A DNA stretch of 64,000 nt from an uncultured Actinomycetes bacterium (GTDB lineage: Bacteria > Actinomycetota > Thermoleophilia > UBA2241). The position numbers were made by a program, and so were the translations under genes. The stretch spans positions 128,001 to 192,000 of the forward strand of contig CAVYCN010000002.1 of assembly GCA_963767005.1 (NCBI GenBank), in the 5' to 3' direction. The notes beneath the pieces are model-generated. The model ran no database searches and was not told the origin of the DNA. It worked only from the letters and a program-made list of their open reading frames with translations. Shown here in pieces: positions 8,219-61,322 of this stretch. Position 1 is the stretch's first letter, and each line of letters opens with the position of its first letter.

Positions 8219-8959
8219 GTGACCGGACGAAAGCGACTCACTGCCGTACTCATAGGCATCACCGCACTCACCGCCTCTTCGGCCCTCGTCTTCTCCCCCG
8301 ACAGCGCTCGCGCCGCGAGCCTGCCCTCCCGCCTCCACCACGCCCGGCACGAGCTGCGTCTCGCGCGGCATCGGCTGCGCCGCGATCGGCTCGCATACGC
8401 CGCCGCCCTGGCGGCCGTAAGCGCGCCGCCGGCGGACGTGGCGCCCAGCGCGACGCCCACCCCCTCGCCGACCGCGAGCGCCTCGTCCGGCGCGACGCCG
8501 AGCGACTCACCCTCGCCGGGCGCGACGCCGAGCGCCGGCCCATCGCCGGCACCGGACCCGTCAGTGTCGCAACTGCGGCTCGCCGTGAAGCGCGACCGGC
8601 GGCGCGTGCGGAGCCTCGCGGCGCTCGTGCATGCGCTGCATCACGAGGCCGAGTTGCGGCGTGCCGCCGCCCACGGCAACTGGATGCCGATGGTGCGCGA
8701 CGCCGCTCGACACGAGCACGTCAACGCCGTCGGCCTGCGCCGCCTCATGTCGCTCGAGTCGGGCGGCGCCGCGCGCGCCGAGAACGGGGCCTACCACGGG
8801 CTCTACCAGTATTGCTGGTCGACCTGGAGATCCGCCTGGAACCCGTGGCGCCACAGCTCGATCTACGACGGTGAGGCCCAGATCCGGGCCACGGCCCTCG
8901 CGATCCACCGCGGCTGGGGCCCACGGATGTGGCCCAACACGTACCCGCGGGCCTTCTGA
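8219..8959 (+). CDS. Secreted lytic transglycosylase / Rpf-like protein with a Pro/Ser/Thr linker
   Basis: SD GGAAGGA before GTG, signal peptide, PSPT linker, C-terminal lysozyme-like LMSLESGG...GLYQY...TW domain. Paralogous to 53041..54021. Confidence 0.72.
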   Translation: MTGRKRLTAVLIGITALTASSALVFSPDSARAASLPSRLHHARHELRLARHRLRRDRLAYAAALAAVSAPPADVAPSATPTPSPTASASSGATPSDSPSPGATPSAGPSPAPDPSVSQLRLAVKRDRRRVRSLAALVHALHHEAELRRAAAHGNWMPMVRDAARHEHVNAVGLRRLMSLESGGAARAENGAYHGLYQYCWSTWRSAWNPWRHSSIYDGEAQIRATALAIHRGWGPRMWPNTYPRAF

Positions 8960-46077: not shown

Positions 46078-46249
46078 GACCGTCGGCCCAGCTTCGCGGG
46101 TCGACAAGACGGCCAGATACGGGGGTCTCAGGCGGCCAGAGGGCAGCGACGCCGATGCTTGCAGTGACGTCGGCGTCTTGCCACACTCAAGACCAGGAAC
46201 AGCCAGGGCAGGCTCGCGCCTGCGTCCTTCCACACATCACGAGGTCGGC

Positions 46250-48703
46250 ATGTTCGAAGTCCTCTCCAACGAGGAGATCGCTCCTCGCCTGCACCGCCTG
46301 ATCGTCTCGGCGCCGCGCGTGGCCCGCTCGCGCAAGCCCGGCCAGTTCGTCATCGTGCGCGCCGCCCCGGGCGACGAGCGCATCCCCCTGACGATCGCCG
46401 ACGACGACCCCGAAGAGGGCACCATCACGCTCATCATCCAGGCCGTCGGCATCAGCACCGAGCGCATCTGCGCCGTGGCCGCCGGCGGCGAGCTGGCCGA
46501 CGTGGCCGGACCTTTGGGTCAGCCCACCCACATCGCCCGCCTCGGCCGGGTGGTCTGCGTGGGCGGCGGGGCCGGCACCGCCGTGCTCTACCCGCTGGCC
46601 AAGGCCCTGGCCGCCGCCGGCAACGAGCTCATCACGATCATCGGCGGGCGCAGCGCCCCCTACGTGGTGCTGGCCGACGAGCTCGGCGCCTTCTCATCAG
46701 AGCTCTATCTGACGACCGAAGACGGCTCCCTGGGCGAGACCGGCTTTGTCACGGCGCCGCTGGCGCGGCTGCTGGCCGAGACCGGCGAGCGCCATCCGGC
46801 GGCCGTCTATGCCGTCGGTCCGGTGCCCATGATGAAGGCCGTCTGTGCCCTCACCGCCAAGACCGCGACCGCGACCGTGGTCAGCCTCAACCCGCTCATG
46901 GTCGACGGCACCGGCATGTGCGGCGGCTGTCGCGTCACGGTCGGCGGCCAGACCCGCTTCGCCTGCGTCGACGGCCCCGAGTTCGACGGCCTGCTCGTCG
47001 ACTTCGACGAGCTCGCCGGCCGCCAGGCCACCTACCACGAGCTCGACAGCCACGGCTGCCGCCTGGTGGCCGCCGCCGACGCCCTGGTCGAGGCCGACGC
47101 CGCTCCTGTTTCCACCGCCCCGGCCCCGTCCGCCGCGGTCGCCGAGCCTGCCCCTGGCGCGACTCCCAGAGCCGCAGCCGCGACCCCCGCCGCCGCGCCC
47201 GAGCCCGCCCCCGCGACCCCCGAGGTCGAACTGGTCCCCGGCGCCCCCCTGACGGCCAAGCAGCGCATGGCGATCGGCCGCGTCGCCATGCCGGCCCAGG
47301 ACGCCGCCCGGCGCGCCCACAACTTCAGCGAGGTCAACCTCGGCCTGACGGCCGCCGACGCGATCCGCGAGGCCAACCGCTGCCTGGCCTGCAAGAACTC
47401 ACCCTGCGTGGCCGGCTGCCCGGTCGAGGTGCGCATCCCCGCCTTCCTGACCGCCCTGGCGGCCGCCGACTTCGCCGCCGCCGCCCAGCTGCTGCTCACC
47501 GACAACGCCCTGCCGGCCACCACCGGCCGGGTCTGCCCCCAGGAGACCCAGTGCGAGGGCGTCTGCCTGCGCGGCAAGAAGGGCGAGCCCGTGGCGATCG
47601 GCTGGCTCGAGCGCTTCGTGGCCGACTGGGCCGCCGAGCACCTGCCCTTCGAGGTCCCCGAGGTCACGCCCTCCGGCAAGAACGTCGCCGTGGTGGGCGC
47701 CGGCCCCGGTGGGCTGACCGTGGCCGGCGAGCTCGCCCGCGCCGGACACAAGGTCCACGTCTTCGAGGCCTTGCACGACACCGGCGGCGTGCTGCGCTAC
47801 GGCATCCCCGAGTTCCGCCTGCCCAAGAAGATCGTCGATGCCGAGGTCGCCAACCTGCGCCGCCTGGGGGTCGAGATCGAGTGCGACGTGATCGTCGGGC
47901 GCACCCTCACCGTCGACCAGCTCGCCGCCCAGTTCGACGCCGTCTTTGTGGCCAACGGCGCCGGCCTGCCGATGTTCTTAAACGTGCCCGGCGAGAACCT
48001 GAAGGGCGTCTACTCGGCCAACGAGTACCTGACCCGGGTCAACCTCATGGGCGCCTGGCAGGAGCGCGAGGGCGGCACGCCGATCATGCGCGCCGCCCGC
48101 GTCGTGGTCTTCGGCGGCGGCAACGTGGCGATGGACTCGGTGCGCACCGCCAAGCGCCTGGGCGCCGCGGCGGCGATCTGCGCCTACCGGCGCACGCGCG
48201 CCGAGATGCCGGCCCGCATCGAGGAGATCGCTCACGCCGAAGAGGAGGGCATCGACTTCCACTTCCTCGTGGCGCCGCTTGGCATCGAAGGCGACCAGAG
48301 CGGCTGGGTGCGCGCCGTGCGCCTGCAGCGCATGGCGCTCGGCGAGCCCGACGACTCCGGTCGGCGGCGGCCGGTGCCGCTGCCCGGATCCGAGTTCGAG
48401 CTGGCCTGCGACGCCGTGGTCGTGGCCCTGGGCACGGTGGCCAACCCGCTGCTCACCGAGGCCACCCCGCAGATCGCCACCAACCGCTGGGGCAACATCA
48501 CAACCGACGAGCACCACGCCACCAGCCTGCCCGGCGTCTGGGCCGGCGGCGACATCGTGCGCGGCGGCGCCACCGTGATCCTGGCGATGGGCGACGGCAA
48601 GGCCGCGGCCCGCTCGATCGACGCCTACCTGCGCGGCCAGAGCAGCGCGGCGGAGCCGACGCAGGACGGCGGGGCCGGCGCACCGGTCGGCGAGGCGAGC
48701 TGA
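46250..48703 (+). CDS. Fused NfnA(SudB)-NfnB(SudA/GltD-like) NADH-dependent ferredoxin:NADP+ oxidoreductase
   Basis: N-domain PGQFVI, ERIPLT, GPLG, GPVPMM, DGTGMCGGCRV...ACVDGPEFD, then a Pro/Ala linker. C-domain RCLACK..PC..GCP, GRVCPQE.QCE..C, GAGPGG, GGGNVAMD, AGGDIV.GGATVILAM. Confidence 0.88.
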   Translation: MFEVLSNEEIAPRLHRLIVSAPRVARSRKPGQFVIVRAAPGDERIPLTIADDDPEEGTITLIIQAVGISTERICAVAAGGELADVAGPLGQPTHIARLGRVVCVGGGAGTAVLYPLAKALAAAGNELITIIGGRSAPYVVLADELGAFSSELYLTTEDGSLGETGFVTAPLARLLAETGERHPAAVYAVGPVPMMKAVCALTAKTATATVVSLNPLMVDGTGMCGGCRVTVGGQTRFACVDGPEFDGLLVDFDELAGRQATYHELDSHGCRLVAAADALVEADAAPVSTAPAPSAAVAEPAPGATPRAAAATPAAAPEPAPATPEVELVPGAPLTAKQRMAIGRVAMPAQDAARRAHNFSEVNLGLTAADAIREANRCLACKNSPCVAGCPVEVRIPAFLTALAAADFAAAAQLLLTDNALPATTGRVCPQETQCEGVCLRGKKGEPVAIGWLERFVADWAAEHLPFEVPEVTPSGKNVAVVGAGPGGLTVAGELARAGHKVHVFEALHDTGGVLRYGIPEFRLPKKIVDAEVANLRRLGVEIECDVIVGRTLTVDQLAAQFDAVFVANGAGLPMFLNVPGENLKGVYSANEYLTRVNLMGAWQEREGGTPIMRAARVVVFGGGNVAMDSVRTAKRLGAAAAICAYRRTRAEMPARIEEIAHAEEEGIDFHFLVAPLGIEGDQSGWVRAVRLQRMALGEPDDSGRRRPVPLPGSEFELACDAVVVALGTVANPLLTEATPQIATNRWGNITTDEHHATSLPGVWAGGDIVRGGATVILAMGDGKAAARSIDAYLRGQSSAAEPTQDGGAGAPVGEAS

Positions 48704-48843: not shown

Positions 48844-49527
48844 ATGGCCGTCCGCATCCTCGGTCTCGACTGCAGCCCACGCGACGGGAGCAACAGCGGG
48901 CTCCTGCTGACGCATTCCTTCGCACGGCTCGCCGATGCCTATCCCGGCGAGGTCGAGCACGACATCATCACCCTGCGTGAGCTGCACATCGAGGCCTGCC
49001 GGGCCTGCAATATCTGCGGCAAGACCAAGGACGGCAAGTACGTGCCTTGTATCCAGGCGGGCAAGGACGACGTCCAGCCGGTGCTCGACGCCATGGTGGT
49101 CGCCGACGGCATCGTGGTCGCGACGCCCGTGTACTTCGGCCTGCCGTCCGACCTGTTCGCGCGCTTCGTCATGCGGACCCGGGTGCTGCGCCATCAGGAC
49201 TTCCGCTTGGCCGATCGGCCGGTCGGCGTCATGGCGACCGCCGGGCGGCGCTCCGGCGGCGCCGAGACGACCATCCTGGCCACCTGGCTGCCGTTCGTGC
49301 GCAACGGCTGCCTGGTCGTGGGCAACGGCGACGCCACGTCGCAGTTCGGCGCCTACGGCTGGGCCGGCGGGCGCGGCCAGATCCTGACCGACGAATGGGG
49401 CATGGAGCAGGGCTTCCAGACCGCCGAGCGGGTCTTCACGGTGGCCCGCGTGGTGCAAGCCGGAGCCGCCGCGCTGGGCGTCGAGAACGGCATGACGTTC
49501 TCGTACTCGTCGGGCACCCGCTCCTGA
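48844..49527 (+). CDS. Iron-sulfur flavoprotein (Isf/multimeric flavodoxin family)
   Basis: CSPR..SNS, CRACNIC...C cluster motif, ADGIVVATPVYFG, GGAETT. Confidence 0.85.
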   Translation: MAVRILGLDCSPRDGSNSGLLLTHSFARLADAYPGEVEHDIITLRELHIEACRACNICGKTKDGKYVPCIQAGKDDVQPVLDAMVVADGIVVATPVYFGLPSDLFARFVMRTRVLRHQDFRLADRPVGVMATAGRRSGGAETTILATWLPFVRNGCLVVGNGDATSQFGAYGWAGGRGQILTDEWGMEQGFQTAERVFTVARVVQAGAAALGVENGMTFSYSSGTRS

Positions 49528-49559
49528 CCGACGAAGACCACGACAGACTGGTGGAGGAC

Positions 49560-49814
49560 ATGAGCGACGCCGACAAGATCCTCGAGTTCATCCGCGACGA
49601 GGCCGTCGACACGCCGCCCGAGCGCATCGACGCCGACACGTCGCTGTTTCGCGACCAGCTCCTCGACTCGATGAGTCTCACCAGCCTCATCACGTTCCTC
49701 GAGGACGAGTTCGCCATCAAGGTCGGGGCCATGGACGTGGTGTTCGAGAACCTCGACACCGTCAACCACATGCTGGCGTTCATCGAGCGCAAGAAGGCGG
49801 CGGTCGGTGGCTGA
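49560..49814 (+). CDS. Acyl carrier protein (DltC-like)
   Basis: SD GGAGG. 84-aa acidic protein with TSLF....LDSM (phosphopantetheine Ser), FLEDEF and ENLDT. Confidence 0.88.
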   Translation: MSDADKILEFIRDEAVDTPPERIDADTSLFRDQLLDSMSLTSLITFLEDEFAIKVGAMDVVFENLDTVNHMLAFIERKKAAVGG

Positions 49815-50061
49815 ACCGGCCGCCACGCCGGCGACCGCCATGCGCGGCGACGCGCCGTCGCCCGAACACCTCGCGTCGCCGGCCGACGGCCGCGCGGCCG
49901 TCGCCGACTCCGGCGCCACCGCCCGCCGCGCGTCGCTGCGGGTCGGCTACGTGCTCGGTCTTGCCGTGCAGGTCCTGTTCTGGTTCCTGATCTTCATGGC
50001 GATCGCGGTCGCGGTCGGCGCAGGCGGACACCTCACCGAGTTCCGGTACGTCGGCTTCTAG
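49807..50061 (+). CDS. DltX-like small membrane protein with a C-terminal tyrosine motif
   Basis: Overlaps the ACP stop. One TM helix followed by GAGGHLTE-FRYVGF*. Lies between the ACP and the ligase/MBOAT genes. Confidence 0.72.
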   Translation: MAEPAATPATAMRGDAPSPEHLASPADGRAAVADSGATARRASLRVGYVLGLAVQVLFWFLIFMAIAVAVGAGGHLTEFRYVGF

Positions 50062-50077
50062 ACGGCTGCCCGGACCT

Positions 50078-51544
50078 GTGGACAGCGCCGTCGCCACCCT
50101 GCTCGAGCTCGCCGCGGACGATCCGGCGCGGCCGCTCCTGCTCACCGAGGGCCGTACGCTCACTTACGGCGAGTTCGCCGGCCGGGCGGCCAGCCTCGCT
50201 GCCGCCTTGCGGACGGCCGGCCTGGGGCGTGGCGACCGGGTCGCTACCCTGATCGAAGACTACGACGCCTTCTTCCTTTCGATGTTCGCGGTGTGGCTCG
50301 CGGGCGGTGTTCTCGTGCCCCTCAACACGAGCCTGCCCGCAGCCGACGTCGACTGGCTGCTCGACAAGGCGCGGCCGCGCCTGCTACTGGTCACGACCGG
50401 CGCCGCCGGCCCGCGCCGCGGGGTGTCCTGCCTGACCGTCGCGGCCGAGGGGCCCGGCGCCGAGCCCGGCGGCTGCCTGTCGACCGCCGCCGACGAGCTC
50501 GCCATGATCATGTTCACGTCGGGCACGACCGGGGTGCCCAAGGGCGTGTGTCACACGCTGCGCGCGACCTCCGGGAACGCCGGTCGCGTGGCCGGCGTGC
50601 TCGGCCTGAACGCCGCCGACCGCATCTTCATCAACACGCCGCCCTACTTCACGAGCGGCATCTGTCACTTTCTGACGCTCCTGGCGGCCGGCGGCAGCAC
50701 GGTCGGCCGGCGCGGCTTCTTCTTCGGCGACGGCCTGCTCGCCGAGCTGATTGAGCTCGGCTGCACCGGCTTCGGCGGCGCGCCGGCCCACCTCGTGCGG
50801 GTGGTCGGACCGCTCGACGAGGCGCCCGCGACGTCGGGGCTGCGCTTCTGGGTGAGCTCGGGCGACCACCTCGCGCTCGAGACGATCGAGCGTGTCGGCC
50901 GGCTGCTGCCCGACGTACGGCTCTTCAACATGTACGGCCTGACCGAGGTCGGTGGGCGTCTCTGCGTGCTCCCGCCCGACGAGCTCGAGCGGCGCCGGGG
51001 GTCGGTGGGCCGCCCGCTGCCCGGGATGATCGTGACGGTGCGCGACGCGGACGGGCAGGCGCTACCCGACGGCACCGAGGGTGAGCTCTACGTGAGCGGT
51101 CCGCTCCTCATGCAGGCCTACCTCGACGAGCCCGACATCACGGCCGCCACGCTCACCCCGCACGGCCTGCGCACCGGCGACTTCGGCCGCCGCGACGCCG
51201 ACGGCTTCGTGTGGGTCGCGGGCCGCCGCGACGACATCATCAAGCGCGGCGGCGAGAAGGTCTCGATCGTGCACATCCAGGAGGCGCTGCGCGCGCTCGG
51301 CACGTTCGCCGACGTCGCGGTGGTCGCGGCCGACGACGCCATCCTGGGCCACGTGCCGGTGGCCTTCGTCGTCCCGGCCGACGGGCTGCCGCTCAAGCGC
51401 ACGGCGGTGATGCGCGAGCTGCGCACCGTGCTGCCGTCGACCTCGCTGCCGAGCCGCATCGTGCCGCTCGATGAGATCCCGCGCACCGGCTCGGGCAAGG
51501 CGATCCGCGCCGAGTTGCTGCGCCTGGCCGCACGCGACGTGTAA
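50078..51544 (+). CDS. AMP-forming acyl ligase (ANL family, DltA position)
   Basis: MFTSGTTGVPKG, NMYGLTE, LRTGD, GRRDDIIKRGGEKV, PRTGSGK. Confidence 0.9.
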   Translation: MDSAVATLLELAADDPARPLLLTEGRTLTYGEFAGRAASLAAALRTAGLGRGDRVATLIEDYDAFFLSMFAVWLAGGVLVPLNTSLPAADVDWLLDKARPRLLLVTTGAAGPRRGVSCLTVAAEGPGAEPGGCLSTAADELAMIMFTSGTTGVPKGVCHTLRATSGNAGRVAGVLGLNAADRIFINTPPYFTSGICHFLTLLAAGGSTVGRRGFFFGDGLLAELIELGCTGFGGAPAHLVRVVGPLDEAPATSGLRFWVSSGDHLALETIERVGRLLPDVRLFNMYGLTEVGGRLCVLPPDELERRRGSVGRPLPGMIVTVRDADGQALPDGTEGELYVSGPLLMQAYLDEPDITAATLTPHGLRTGDFGRRDADGFVWVAGRRDDIIKRGGEKVSIVHIQEALRALGTFADVAVVAADDAILGHVPVAFVVPADGLPLKRTAVMRELRTVLPSTSLPSRIVPLDEIPRTGSGKAIRAELLRLAARDV

Positions 51545-51553
51545 GGCGGCGTA

Positions 51554-52894
51554 GTGCAGATCTTCTTCAGCTGGATCCTGGTCCCGGTGATCGTCGTGGC
51601 GGTGCCGCTGTTCTGGCTCGTGCTGCGACGCGAGGCGCACCGCCTGTGGTTCCTGATCGTCGGCTCGCTCGCGCTGCTCGCGCTGCTCAACCCGGCCTTC
51701 GCCGTCGTGTCGGTGTGCCTGGTCGTGGCCACGCACCAGCTCGTCGAGCAGTTGCGCGCCAAGCGCCTGTCGGTGGGGCGCGCCGTGCTCATCGGCGTCC
51801 TCGGGGCGATCGTGGTGCTCGCCCTGGGCAAGTACGGCCAGCGCATGGTCGGCGGCCTGTGGGGCACCGACGACTGGGTCTACACGCGGATCGCCATGCC
51901 GCTCGGCGTGAGCTACTTCGCCTTCCGCCTGCTGCAGTACGTCTTCGACCAGGCCCGTGGCGTGCTCACCGAGAACTCGCTGCTGCGCTTGGCCGCCTTT
52001 GTCTGCTTCCTGCCGACCTTCGCCGCCGGTCCCATCGAGACCTACCAGGGCTTCTACGGCAAGCGCAGCACGAGCTTCGACCGCGACCTCTTCTACCAGG
52101 GCCTGCGGCGCATCGCCATCGGCTACTTCAAGAAGGTCTTCGTCGAGAGCTTCTTCCTGGCCATCTACATCGCGCCCGAGGTGCGCGCCCCGCTCACGCC
52201 GGGCTGGCATTTCAGCACGGCACGGCCGCTGCAGGCCGCCGGCTTTGTGATCTTCGCCTTCCTGCGCGCCTACATCGACCTGTCGGCCTACACCGACCTC
52301 GCCATCGGCTTCTCGCGCCTGTTCGGGTTCCGCATCATGGAGAACTTCAACAACCCGCTCCTGAAGCGCAACCTGAGCGAGTTCTGGCGCTCGTGGCACA
52401 TCTCACTGTCGACCTGGTGCCGCAACAACGTGTACTTCCCGGTGTTCGGCGCGACCCGCAAGGTCTGGCTCGGCCTCTACTCGAGCATGATCGTCATGGG
52501 CCTCTGGCACTACGTCGACCTCAACTGGTTCTCGTGGGCCCTGTGGCACGGCACCGGCCTCGTCGTCGTGAGCTGGTGGCTCGCGCGCAAGAAGGCCTTC
52601 CGCAAGGCTCACCGCGGCAACGCTTTCTGGAGCCGCAGCTCGTGGCGTCACGCGTTGCTGTCGCCGCTCTGGTACGTCATGACGTTCTGCTACGTGGCGC
52701 TCGGCTACGCCTTTGTGGGCACGCCCAACATCACGGTCGCCCTGCGTGTGCTGACCGGTGCGATCGCCGGGCCCGTTGTGTGGCTCGCCCGGCACGGCCT
52801 CGAGGGTCTCGTCATGCTGCTCGTCGTGGTCGCCGTGGCCGTCGCGGTCACGGCCGTCGTGACCGCTGTGCGGCGCCGACCGCAGCCGGCCTGA
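51554..52894 (+). CDS. MBOAT O-acyltransferase (DltB/AlgI/PatA-like)
   Basis: PLGVSYFAF, AAGPI, YIDLSAYTDLAIG, ENFNNP, EFWRSWHISLSTW, MGLWH. Confidence 0.93.
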   Translation: MQIFFSWILVPVIVVAVPLFWLVLRREAHRLWFLIVGSLALLALLNPAFAVVSVCLVVATHQLVEQLRAKRLSVGRAVLIGVLGAIVVLALGKYGQRMVGGLWGTDDWVYTRIAMPLGVSYFAFRLLQYVFDQARGVLTENSLLRLAAFVCFLPTFAAGPIETYQGFYGKRSTSFDRDLFYQGLRRIAIGYFKKVFVESFFLAIYIAPEVRAPLTPGWHFSTARPLQAAGFVIFAFLRAYIDLSAYTDLAIGFSRLFGFRIMENFNNPLLKRNLSEFWRSWHISLSTWCRNNVYFPVFGATRKVWLGLYSSMIVMGLWHYVDLNWFSWALWHGTGLVVVSWWLARKKAFRKAHRGNAFWSRSSWRHALLSPLWYVMTFCYVALGYAFVGTPNITVALRVLTGAIAGPVVWLARHGLEGLVMLLVVVAVAVAVTAVVTAVRRRPQPA

Positions 52895-53040
52895 GGGGTC
52901 TTTGCGAGGGGGCGGGGGCGCCCGCGGCGGTGTCGCTGCTTGGCAACTTCTGTGAGCATGTGATACTGTGCCGGCTCACGACGTGAGCGGCCCCTGCTGC
53001 CGCCTGTGATCTTGCGCTCGCACGACCCGGAGGCGACGCG

Positions 53041-54021
53041 ATGAAGATCGACAGAGCATTCAGATGTGTGGTCGTTCTTTCGGTCCTTTCGACCCTTCTC
53101 CTTCTCGTCGTCGCCTCGTCGGCGTCGGCGAGCTCGCTCACCAATGCGACGGCCCAGGCGCGGGCGGTCTCCGCGCAGGTGAGCGCCCTCGACCTGCAGG
53201 TCGACCAGACGGTCAACGCCTACGCGGCCGCCGTGCAGCGTCTCACCGCCATTCAGGCGCAGGTGGGCGCGAACCGCGCCGCGCTCAGCCTCGACCGGTA
53301 CCAGCTCACCATGGCCCAGCAGCAGCTCGCCCAGCACCTCGTGCTCGCCTACAAGGGCGGCGGCGACGGCGTGCTCAACGCCGTGTTCCAGGCGGGCAGC
53401 TTCAGCGACCTGCTCACGCGGCTCGACTACGTACAGCACCTGACCGGCGACGACGCGACCCTGATCCAGGCGGTGCGGCAGCACCGCCGTCAACTCGACG
53501 CGACGGGCAGGGCCCTGCAGAAGGAGCTCAAAAGCGCCGAGACGACGGCGGCCGACCTCACCGCCGCGCGCGACCGGGTCGACGGGGAGCTGAGCGCGCG
53601 CCAGGCGCTGCTGCACGGTCTGAAGGACACGGTCGCGCGACTGGTGGCCGCGCAGCGGACGGTGACGCCCGTCGTGACGACATCCGCCAGCACGCCGGCG
53701 CCGCCCTCGACGGCCGGCGACGGCGGCGGCCCCTGGTGGCCGGCGATCAAGGCCGCCGCCGCCGCCGACGGCATCTGGGCCGAGGGCCTCTACCGGCTGA
53801 TGATGGCCGAGTCGGGCGGGTGCTGCACGGCCTCCAACGGGGTCGACCTCGGCCTCTTCCAGTACGCGACCGGCACCTGGAAGGGCGCCTGGAACCCCTG
53901 GCGCTCGGCGAGCATCTTCGACGGCGGCGCCCAGATCAGGGCGACCGCGCTCGCCGTCCACCTGGGCTACGGCCCGGCGTGGTGGCCCACCACGTACCCC
54001 TGGGCCTTCTCGCGCCAGTAG
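53041..54021 (+). CDS. Secreted PcsB/CwlO-type coiled coil + lytic transglycosylase/Rpf-like domain
   Basis: Signal peptide, AYKGG...SFSDLL.RLDY coiled coil, C-terminal LMMAESGG...GLFQY..TW domain. SD GGAGG. Confidence 0.8.
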   Translation: MKIDRAFRCVVVLSVLSTLLLLVVASSASASSLTNATAQARAVSAQVSALDLQVDQTVNAYAAAVQRLTAIQAQVGANRAALSLDRYQLTMAQQQLAQHLVLAYKGGGDGVLNAVFQAGSFSDLLTRLDYVQHLTGDDATLIQAVRQHRRQLDATGRALQKELKSAETTAADLTAARDRVDGELSARQALLHGLKDTVARLVAAQRTVTPVVTTSASTPAPPSTAGDGGGPWWPAIKAAAAADGIWAEGLYRLMMAESGGCCTASNGVDLGLFQYATGTWKGAWNPWRSASIFDGGAQIRATALAVHLGYGPAWWPTTYPWAFSRQ

Positions 54022-60620: not shown

Positions 60621-60726
60621 GCACACGCTCTCGGATCATCGACCGGCGGCGCCCTTTCGTGCGCTCTGCGAGTGGAGGCATCGCTGCCCGTCGGACGTAG
60701 TATGGTTCTGACGAGAGGAGCGCCTC

Positions 60727-60864
60727 ATGGGGAACATCGCCTGGAGTTTGATCATCTGGACCGCCGTCACGTTCGTCGTGATGGTGGGGCTCGTCGTCGG
60801 TGTGGCGATCTGGCTGGCCAGACGCGTTCGGGGGCGAACGCGAACAGGCGCGCCGAGGGCCTGA
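60727..60864 (+). CDS. Small single-TM membrane protein (45 aa), not in the ORF track
   Basis: SD GAGAGGAG before ATG. MGNIAWSLIIWTAVTFVVMVGLVVGVAIWLARRVRGRTRTGAPRA*. Confidence 0.6.
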   Translation: MGNIAWSLIIWTAVTFVVMVGLVVGVAIWLARRVRGRTRTGAPRA

Positions 60865-60927
60865 CGGCAGGCGCAGCGCGCGCCGATGCGGGGAGCCGAG
60901 GACGAGTGTCTGGCCTTCGCCGTGCGG

Positions 60928-60936
60928 TGGTATCCT
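60928..60936 (+). promoter_or_regulatory. Extended -10 promoter of rnpB
   Basis: TG-G-TATCCT just upstream of the P1 5' strand. Confidence 0.55.
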
Positions 60937-60939
60937 GTC

Positions 60940-61322
60940 CGAGCAAGCCAGGTGGCCGCGGCGCGGCCGCGTCTTCCGTCTCCTCGGAGCGGACGAGGCG
61001 CCGCGTCGAGGAAAGTCCGGACACCACAGAGCAGGGCGCTGGATAACGTCCAGGCGGCGAAAGCCGACGGCAGCGCAACAGAGAGCAGACCGCCAGCGGC
61101 CCCTTCGGGGGTGCGGGCAAGGGTGAAACGGTGAGGTAAGAGCTCACCAGCGGTCCTGGCGACAGGCCGGCTCGGCAAGCCCCGCCCGGTGCAAGACCAA
61201 ATAGGGAGGCGTTCGAGGGTTGCTCGCCCGAAGCCTCCGGGTCGGTCGCACGAGCCCCGCGGCAACGCGGTGGCCCAGATGGATGGCCACTCAACGACAG
61301 AATCCGGCTTATCGGCTTGCTG
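60940..61322 (+). ncRNA. rnpB: RNase P RNA, class A
   Basis: GAGGAAAGTCCGG, CAACAGAGAGCAGACCG, GGGTGAAACGGTGAGGTAAGAGC, GCAAGACCAAATAG, ACAGAATCCGGCTTAT. P1 AGCAAGCC/GGCTTGCT. Confidence 0.96.

Follow-up and report, generated by a model that had tools for sequence, protein, structure and literature searches.

A Dlt-like acylation operon with a predicted dicarboxylate donor and separately encoded SGNH partners in an uncultured Thermoleophilia bacterium

The window analysed here, a 64,000-nucleotide stretch of DNA from an uncultured bacterium of the Thermoleophilia (assembly GCA_963767005.1, contig CAVYCN010000002.1, positions 128,001 to 192,000), contains at positions 48,844 to 52,894 an operon of five genes that encode a flavoprotein, an acyl carrier protein (ACP), a microprotein with one transmembrane (TM) segment, an adenylate-forming ligase and an MBOAT. 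We propose, with moderate confidence, that the operon serves a Dlt-type relay in which a predicted C4–C5 dicarboxylate would be loaded onto the carrier, passed to a tyrosine of the microprotein and then, by way of a separately encoded SGNH protein, to a non-teichoic surface glycan. The genes, their conservation, the catalytic residues, the coding microprotein and three SGNH partners are observed; the order of the relay is drawn from analogy with DltXABCD and PatAB, and the donor from residues of the ligase pocket. The MBOAT histidine, the FxYxxF tyrosine and the SGNH Ser-Asp-His triad, which are the general features of the MBOAT–SGNH Tyr-shuttle class, are all encoded and, to judge from its sequence, the operon is a member of this class that would work like DltXABCD. 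It is not a dlt operon, since its ligase does not have the amine-binding Asp of DltA and no teichoic-acid polymerase gene was found in the genome.

The host genome of the window is 3.44 Mb in size and 100% complete, and the five genes of the operon are as follows.

48844..49527, plus strand: flavodoxin-fold flavin mononucleotide (FMN) protein with a CX2CX2CX10C motif, like the iron-sulfur flavoprotein (Isf) and flavone reductase (FLR) (Pfam PF03358, FMN_red, E 7e-19)
49560..49814, plus strand: stand-alone carrier protein in the DltC role, with phosphopantetheine site Ser37 in LDSM (PF00550, PP-binding, E 5e-8)
49807..50061, plus strand: one-TM microprotein in the DltX role, 84 amino acids, ending in FRYVGF (motif 50041-50058; Tyr81 codon 50047-50049)
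50078..51544, plus strand: adenylate-forming acyl:ACP ligase in the DltA role, with PPYFTSG, predicted from its pocket residues to be a dicarboxylate:ACP ligase
51554..52894, plus strand: DltB-like MBOAT with catalytic His319 (GLWH) and a second His282 (PDB matches to DltB; DltB the best NCBIfam match)

All five open reading frames (ORFs) were confirmed, in keeping with the tightly packed, co-oriented genes reported in a preliminary description of this DNA. The intergenic gaps are 32, −8, 16 and 9 nt, the start of the microprotein ORF overlapping the ACP stop by 8 nt. Pfam assigns four of the five proteins, and the microprotein falls in no Pfam or NCBIfam family. Domains, motifs and gene linkage bear out the Dlt-like architecture of ACP, ligase, MBOAT and Tyr shuttle that the same description had proposed.

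To assess conservation, the genome collection was scanned for the ligase; 89 loci were found, the best 80 of which were retained for locus counts. The named relatives with operon loci are Thermoleophilia or unclassified Actinomycetota metagenome-assembled genomes, and family counts refer to one Thermoleophilia family of which 50 genomes were surveyed. Within 7 kb of the ligase, the ACP and the microprotein are each present in 76 of the 80 loci, the flavoprotein in 72 and the MBOAT in 70, and most of the genes missed fall at contig ends. The genes do occur together in relatives, the complete five-gene set being found in 53/55 loci that have enough flanking DNA on both sides. The MBOAT has an orthologue in 44/50 family genomes and the flavoprotein in 43/50, with both in 43, neither in six and the MBOAT alone in one (G022), which amounts to agreement in 49/50 genomes. 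Among 300 other genomes of the phylum, none was found to contain a close ligase orthologue (best 258 bits versus 849); the tally includes the unpublished genomes G264, G308, G346 and G375, on which nothing else here depends. Because the profiles derive from the same family, and related genomes do not count as independent cases, the figures attest to inheritance of the operon and not to its repeated origin. Rearranged operons were also seen (L033/L051 in G002 and G005, L102 and L118). The rearrangements comprise a microprotein gene, alone or together with an SGNH gene, moved ahead of the flavoprotein, an SGNH gene inserted between flavoprotein and ACP, and a tandem second flavoprotein–ACP–microprotein–SGNH block. 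No paper on the five-gene operon was found in a literature search that did not cover the 2023 Dlt mechanism paper (Schultz), whose DltX-like survey could bear on novelty.

The nature of the donor is suggested by the ligase pocket. In standard adenylation numbering, the pocket comprises the gate Phe191 followed by Thr192, Ser193, Cys196, Gly233, Val259, Ser261, Met285, Gly293, Arg294 and Lys474, and Thr192, Ser193, Ser260, Ser261 and Arg294 are invariant in 121/121 ligase sequences. Thr192 is aligned to the amine-binding Asp of both DltA and VinN. Besides the gate, the DltA pocket differs from that of this ligase at 8/10 code positions, those in common being 299 and the catalytic Lys, and the DltA model is absent from the top 25 NCBIfam matches of the whole ligase. 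The replacement of Asp by Thr192 in a pocket different from that of DltA makes D-alanine unlikely, and in this respect the pocket sequence supports the earlier claim that the donor is neither D-alanine nor another amino acid.

Arg294 is aligned to VinN Arg331 with a one-residue gap, and it is in the same register as the Arg of Cfa5, a member of the AmcH family that has Ser at the Asp position. The generic acyl-CoA ligases compared have a gate His in 12/12 cases and an Arg at the Arg294 position in 0/12, and DltA also lacks this Arg. When the pocket segment was searched alone, VinN was the best PDB match (E 3e-6); of the 18,950 NCBIfam models, that of the exosortase-associated ligase (TIGR03098), whose pocket is of the VinN type, ranked first and AmcH second. 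Fragments of the ligase score 42 and 111 bits with the AmcH/Cfa5 model NF058661 (cut-off 370), which is not among the top 25 NCBIfam matches of the whole ligase. Features of the NF058661 type that are present in the operon include the missing Asp, an Arg in the strand after YGxTE and a stand-alone ACP partner. In VinN-type enzymes, Asp230 binds the amine while Ser299 and Arg331 bind the distal carboxylate (PMC7756342, PMC12186527), and AmcH is described as loading only 2-oxoglutarate on its ACP and not succinate, malate, fumarate, citrate, Asp or Glu (PMC10698177). From the missing Asp, Arg294 and the pocket matches to VinN and AmcH we infer an amine-free dicarboxylate, likely of the C4–C5 type (2-oxoglutarate, succinate, malate, fumarate or close relatives). 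Separately, proteobacterial cassettes of ACP, ligase, AsnB and NadE genes were noted near polysaccharide genes (L189 6486-11576; L190; L194; L195); some of their ligases lack the Asp and have the Arg, which suggests dicarboxylate loading followed by amidation.

The carrier has weak NCBIfam matches to an ornithine-lipid ACP, AmcB and DltC, all of them below cut-off (29 and 21 bits versus 68 and 52 for the DltC models), and an AcpS homologue is encoded on contig C3. The microprotein contains a single hydrophobic/TM segment and ends in FRYVGF, an example of the FxYxxF motif that serves as the acyl shuttle of DltX and PatA (PMC12148441). Its tail, LTEFRYVGF, is retained in 71/77 hits, with five single-residue variants and one sequence that ends otherwise, and over the last nine codons the 73 distinct sequences differ from that of the window by 145 synonymous and five non-synonymous changes. 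By this signature the microprotein is a real coding gene, so that its conservation and coding status, both of which mattered to the preliminary description, are upheld. As a chance control, all six-frame ORFs of at least 30 amino acids in the genome were examined, and one of the 48,234 ends in FxYxxF, namely the microprotein itself. A search with the microprotein returned 513 unannotated clusters at E≤10. With its motif, TM segment and coding signature but no DltX profile match, the microprotein can be assigned a DltX role without Pfam DltX membership.

The operon MBOAT is the only one in this genome. Its best NCBIfam match is DltB at 139 bits, which is below the equivalog cut-off of 375 and makes it DltB-like rather than DltB, and its PDB matches are the DltB entries 8JEM and 6BUG (E 6e-37). 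His282 and His319 are invariant (19/19), the latter being aligned to the GFWH of DltB. The operon MBOAT ends in FxYxxF in 0/65 orthologues whereas other MBOATs in the genomes of relatives do have such a tail, as would be expected if the microprotein supplies the motif (PMC12148441). In these relatives, each PatA/AlgI-type MBOAT with the fused FxYxxF tail is accompanied by a partner gene of its own (L161 7377-12783; L121 2724-5423), and in L121 the fused-tail MBOAT and its partner lie directly upstream of the Dlt-like operon.

A family of SGNH proteins of 350-400 amino acids with an N-terminal TM helix is encoded in or beside the operon in 54/55 complete loci. The gene sits between the ligase and the MBOAT in 47/55, often with overlapping stop and start codons, and the sole locus of the 55 without a linked copy is that of the closest relative of this genome. 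Three partner copies are present in this genome, all outside the operon.

C2:10180-11301: SGNH partner copy
C12:155107-156189: SGNH partner copy
C4:387866-389146: SGNH partner copy

The C2 and C12 copies are 59% and 66-69% identical to operon-linked congener copies. The triad of Ser87, Asp331 and His334 is invariant in the family (29/29). Sequence searches yielded no name for the family, and it was identified as SGNH by its fold alone: the structural model has a predicted local distance difference test score of 95 and DltD (3BMA) is its first-ranked Foldseek match (E 2.5e-6). Look-alikes found with ESM include DltD- and DUF1574-bearing clusters. Thus, this model predicts that the SGNH protein takes the role of DltD, without being a member of Pfam DltD. 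Of the other genomes of the taxonomic family, 43/46 contain it, with between 1 and 13 matches per genome, part of which represent a shorter related family; in the rest of the class it occurs in 1/204 genomes, as a weak match. The three family genomes that lack it (G027, G033, G122) also lack the MBOAT and the flavoprotein. The absence of DltD that the preliminary description had noted therefore holds for this copy of the operon, where no SGNH gene follows the MBOAT, but not for the genome, with its three copies elsewhere, nor for the family. Canonical dlt genes were not detected elsewhere in the genome by Pfam DltD or by tblastn with a set of real DltX, DltC and DltD sequences, which speaks against a canonical dltD at another locus. 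A wider search of the genome for partners of the DltD, SGNH, AlgJ or DHHW type, as the same description had envisaged, gave the three membrane-anchored SGNH copies and no DltD or DHHW match; one weak AlgX match was rejected as an AlgX/AlgJ partner, being a soluble 220-amino-acid GDSL esterase. No polysaccharide cluster was present near non-operon SGNH or MBOAT genes among the regions listed (20 regions, all but ~5). A second family of ~300 amino acids related to the SGNH partner is multi-copy and dispersed in relatives (L157 7542-8447; L158 6793-7683; L159 6940-7839; L160 6405-7355) and was not found in this genome.

The flavoprotein has the Cys motif CX2CX2CX8-12C in 66/66 full-length orthologues, and a compact four-Cys motif of this kind is a hallmark of Isf/FLR-like proteins. 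Its sequence thus combines the two features of that type, a flavodoxin fold and four invariant Cys, and cofactor binding is predicted. Its sole PDB sequence match is the FMN ene-reductase FLR (flavone reductase, 7D38; E 2e-11), a match over the N-terminal ~105 amino acids that takes in the N-terminal third of FLR (PMC7862272). Flavodoxin-like paralogues with identical scores are located at C17:5401-5985 and C6:2498-3082 of the same genome (G000), possibly representing a duplicated or redundant assembly segment.

With respect to the acceptor, neither a TagB/TagF polymerase (PF04464) nor a member of the sulfatase/LtaS family (PF00884) was found in this complete genome. In the family, PF04464 is present in 2/50 genomes and sulfatase-family genes, which may or may not include LtaS, in 39/50; of the genomes with the operon MBOAT, 10 have no sulfatase-family gene. 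Without a teichoic-acid polymerase or LtaS, the acceptor is likely a non-teichoic glycan, which from gene content may be a lipoglycan, a wall polysaccharide or peptidoglycan. The envelope polymer that the preliminary description had left unnamed is thereby narrowed to one that is probably not a classical teichoic acid. The genome encodes four LCP ligases and has five GT87 matches (four over cut-off) and 10 GT-C (PMT_2) matches, which makes it likely that the organism has wall glycopolymers and lipid-linked glycosylation. A myo-inositol-phosphate synthase was not found in the genome, hence a mycobacterial-type phosphatidylinositol lipoglycan is not supported. Downstream of the operon lies a neighbour that is not part of its core.

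53041..54021, plus strand: secreted coiled-coil protein (CC_PcsB, E 3e-7) with a lysozyme/SLT-like C-terminal domain (SLT weak, E 0.04)

A promoter scan places a promoter-like site of its own at 52940-52967. Homologues with the SLT/lysozyme-like domain flank the operon in 46/80 loci, upstream in 38/61 and, in the loci most closely related to that of this genome, downstream, the flank varying with genus, and this neighbour keeps peptidoglycan in play as an acceptor. The protein belongs to a secreted family with a short lysozyme/SLT-like C-terminal domain that is barely recognised by Pfam. Another member is at 8564-8959 of the window (G000 C2:136564-136959), and one copy of the family accompanies the operon in different genera, on one side or the other.

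Several observations weigh against the proposed relay, and they are considered here together with the alternatives. Whole-ligase scores and fold searches put generic acyl-CoA ligases (fatty-acyl-CoA ligases, feruloyl-CoA synthetase) and MenE first, and a quick ligase tree did not group the family with VinN or Cfa5 (support 28) and left its position unresolved. In the loop, the Arg of VinN precedes the Arg294 position by one residue, and identity to Cfa5 is ~29%. The pocket code narrows the substrate and does not fix it, the exact acid not being readable from sequence. The whole-ligase matches and the tree would also suit the same relay with another kind of donor, namely a monocarboxylic, hydroxy or aryl acid that the flavoprotein might make or reduce on the ACP, with Arg294 being structural or binding a hydroxyl or keto group, and the co-inheritance of a flavoprotein that resembles an ene-reductase fits such a donor. 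However, it fits less well with the gate His and missing Arg of the 12 generic ligases and with the ranking of the exosortase-associated and AmcH models by the pocket segment, and we regard it as rather unlikely. Transfer of an amino acid (D-Ala, Gly or Asp) by a divergent ligase able to bind the amine in the absence of the canonical Asp appears very improbable. The overall layout does mirror dltXABCD, DltB is the closest solved MBOAT and the pocket resembles that of Asp-activating VinN, but the Asp is Thr in every ligase sequence, the DltA pocket is largely different, and the genome contains no dltX-, dltC- or dltD-like gene (tblastn; Pfam DltD) and no teichoic-acid polymerase.

The other adverse points concern the remaining proteins of the relay. 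The microprotein has no profile similarity to real DltX beyond motif and layout. In a second structural alignment of the SGNH model, VIA-align bore out the SGNH fold and ranked generic SGNH esterases highest, TesA being first (Z 16.3, root-mean-square deviation 2.5 over 166 residues) and PatB at Z 13.8, with no DltD among the best 50 matches, and at the sequence level the SGNH family matched neither DltD nor Pfam DltD. The neighbourhoods in which the three dispersed SGNH genes lie are unrelated and point to no acceptor. Of 70 operons with upstream DNA, two lack the flavoprotein, and one 95%-complete genome without it retains the rest of the operon; it is therefore not strictly required or is replaceable, and the redox tailoring suggested in the preliminary description is weakened as an obligatory step. 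That the SGNH proteins are stand-alone esterases, the MBOAT end product being an acylated lipid, protein or the microprotein itself, would agree with the generic esterases of the second alignment and with SGNH genes that are unlinked to the operon in this genome and its closest relative. We consider it improbable, as the SGNH gene is inside the operon in most complete loci, often with overlapping codons, the SGNH family accompanies the operon and is almost restricted to the one taxonomic family, and FxYxxF is a known shuttle to SGNH transferases (PMC12148441). A further alternative concerns only the acceptor and is compatible with a dicarboxylate donor: the relay could acylate peptidoglycan with any acid, as PatAB does, and so control a lytic transglycosylase. 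The flanking SLT/lysozyme-like genes, the lack of a teichoic-acid polymerase and the O-acetylation of peptidoglycan by MBOAT–SGNH pairs (PMC12148441) all speak for this. The SLT assignment is, however, weak, adjacency in kin that share gene order represents few independent events, and the presence of as many as 13 SGNH matches in a genome points to more than one acceptor; we judge peptidoglycan acylation to be possible, though on the whole unlikely.

The dicarboxylate relay that we favour would begin with the ligase, ATP and a dicarboxylate, from which an acyl-S-ACP would be formed with one carboxyl activated and the other predicted to be held by Arg294. By analogy, MBOAT His319 would move the acyl group from the ACP to Tyr81 of the microprotein at the outer face. 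From the acyl-Tyr it would go to the SGNH Ser and finally to a hydroxyl of the surface glycan. One carboxylate of the resulting half-ester would stay free and so contribute negative charge. A single donor module would likely supply a number of dispersed SGNH transferases that differ in their acceptors. The weakest step is that of the flavoprotein, which may reduce or desaturate the acid while it is bound to the ACP. A more far-reaching version, which we put forward tentatively, is a charge-reversed Dlt system in which a tricarboxylic-acid-cycle dicarboxylate of the 2-oxoglutarate/succinate type, possibly redox-edited by the Fe–S flavoprotein, might be distributed by interchangeable, dispersed SGNH transferases to several envelope glycans, giving teichoic-acid-free actinobacteria an anionic surface.

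Two other features of the window were noted. On the plus strand directly upstream of the operon (46178-48703) is a fused NfnAB/glutamate-synthase-small-subunit-like oxidoreductase, which was rejected as a part of the system because it adjoins the operon in only 3/21 loci, in one of which it is split. On the minus strand at ~60700-61150, between 6-phosphogluconolactonase-like and cupin genes, non-coding DNA reads, from its motifs, like an RNase P RNA gene.

Among known systems, PatAB and AlgI-type O-acetyltransferases share the MBOAT His, the Tyr hexapeptide shuttle and the SGNH transferase with the system described here. However, they use acyl-CoA and have the hexapeptide fused to the MBOAT, in place of a carrier protein and a separate microprotein. 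AmcH/Cfa5 and VinN/AfcQ/BolO are likewise stand-alone acyl:ACP ligases with an aromatic gate and an Arg in the strand after YGxTE, and in Cfa5, as here, a small hydroxyl residue replaces the Asp. Unlike the operon ligase, these enzymes start natural-product pathways and are not part of a trans-membrane acylation relay, and the resemblance to them (~29% identity) is below family cut-offs. The outcome predicted here, anionic dicarboxylate half-esters, is that of SucT-type succinylation of mycobacterial envelope polysaccharides. Micrococci likewise carry dicarboxylate half-esters on an actinobacterial envelope glycan, in the form of succinylated lipomannan. SucT is a single acyltransferase of the AT3 family, and we know of no carrier protein, MBOAT or Tyr shuttle for it.

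The closest parallel is DltXABCD, for which the reference operon was that of Latilactobacillus curvatus (L191; Bacillota). Both systems consist of an adenylating ligase, a stand-alone carrier, a short MBOAT without a fused tail, a separate one-TM microprotein ending in FxYxxF and a membrane-anchored SGNH protein. Unlike DltXABCD, the present system has a ligase with a dicarboxylate-type Arg and no amine-binding Asp, a microprotein and SGNH proteins without detectable sequence similarity to DltX and DltD, an extra flavoprotein, several, partly dispersed SGNH paralogues, and a host without detectable teichoic-acid polymerases in its genome. Dlt is described in PMC12148441 as the MBOAT–SGNH pathway that has both a carrier protein and a stand-alone microprotein, the other pathways having neither. 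The occurrence of both here, without D-alanine or detectable teichoic-acid genes, suggests that the Dlt design serves acyl export in general. A dicarboxylate donor, if true, would be new chemistry for this design, adding negative charge where Dlt masks it, and the operon provides a way into the envelope chemistry of an uncultured actinobacterial lineage that is found in many metagenome-assembled genomes.

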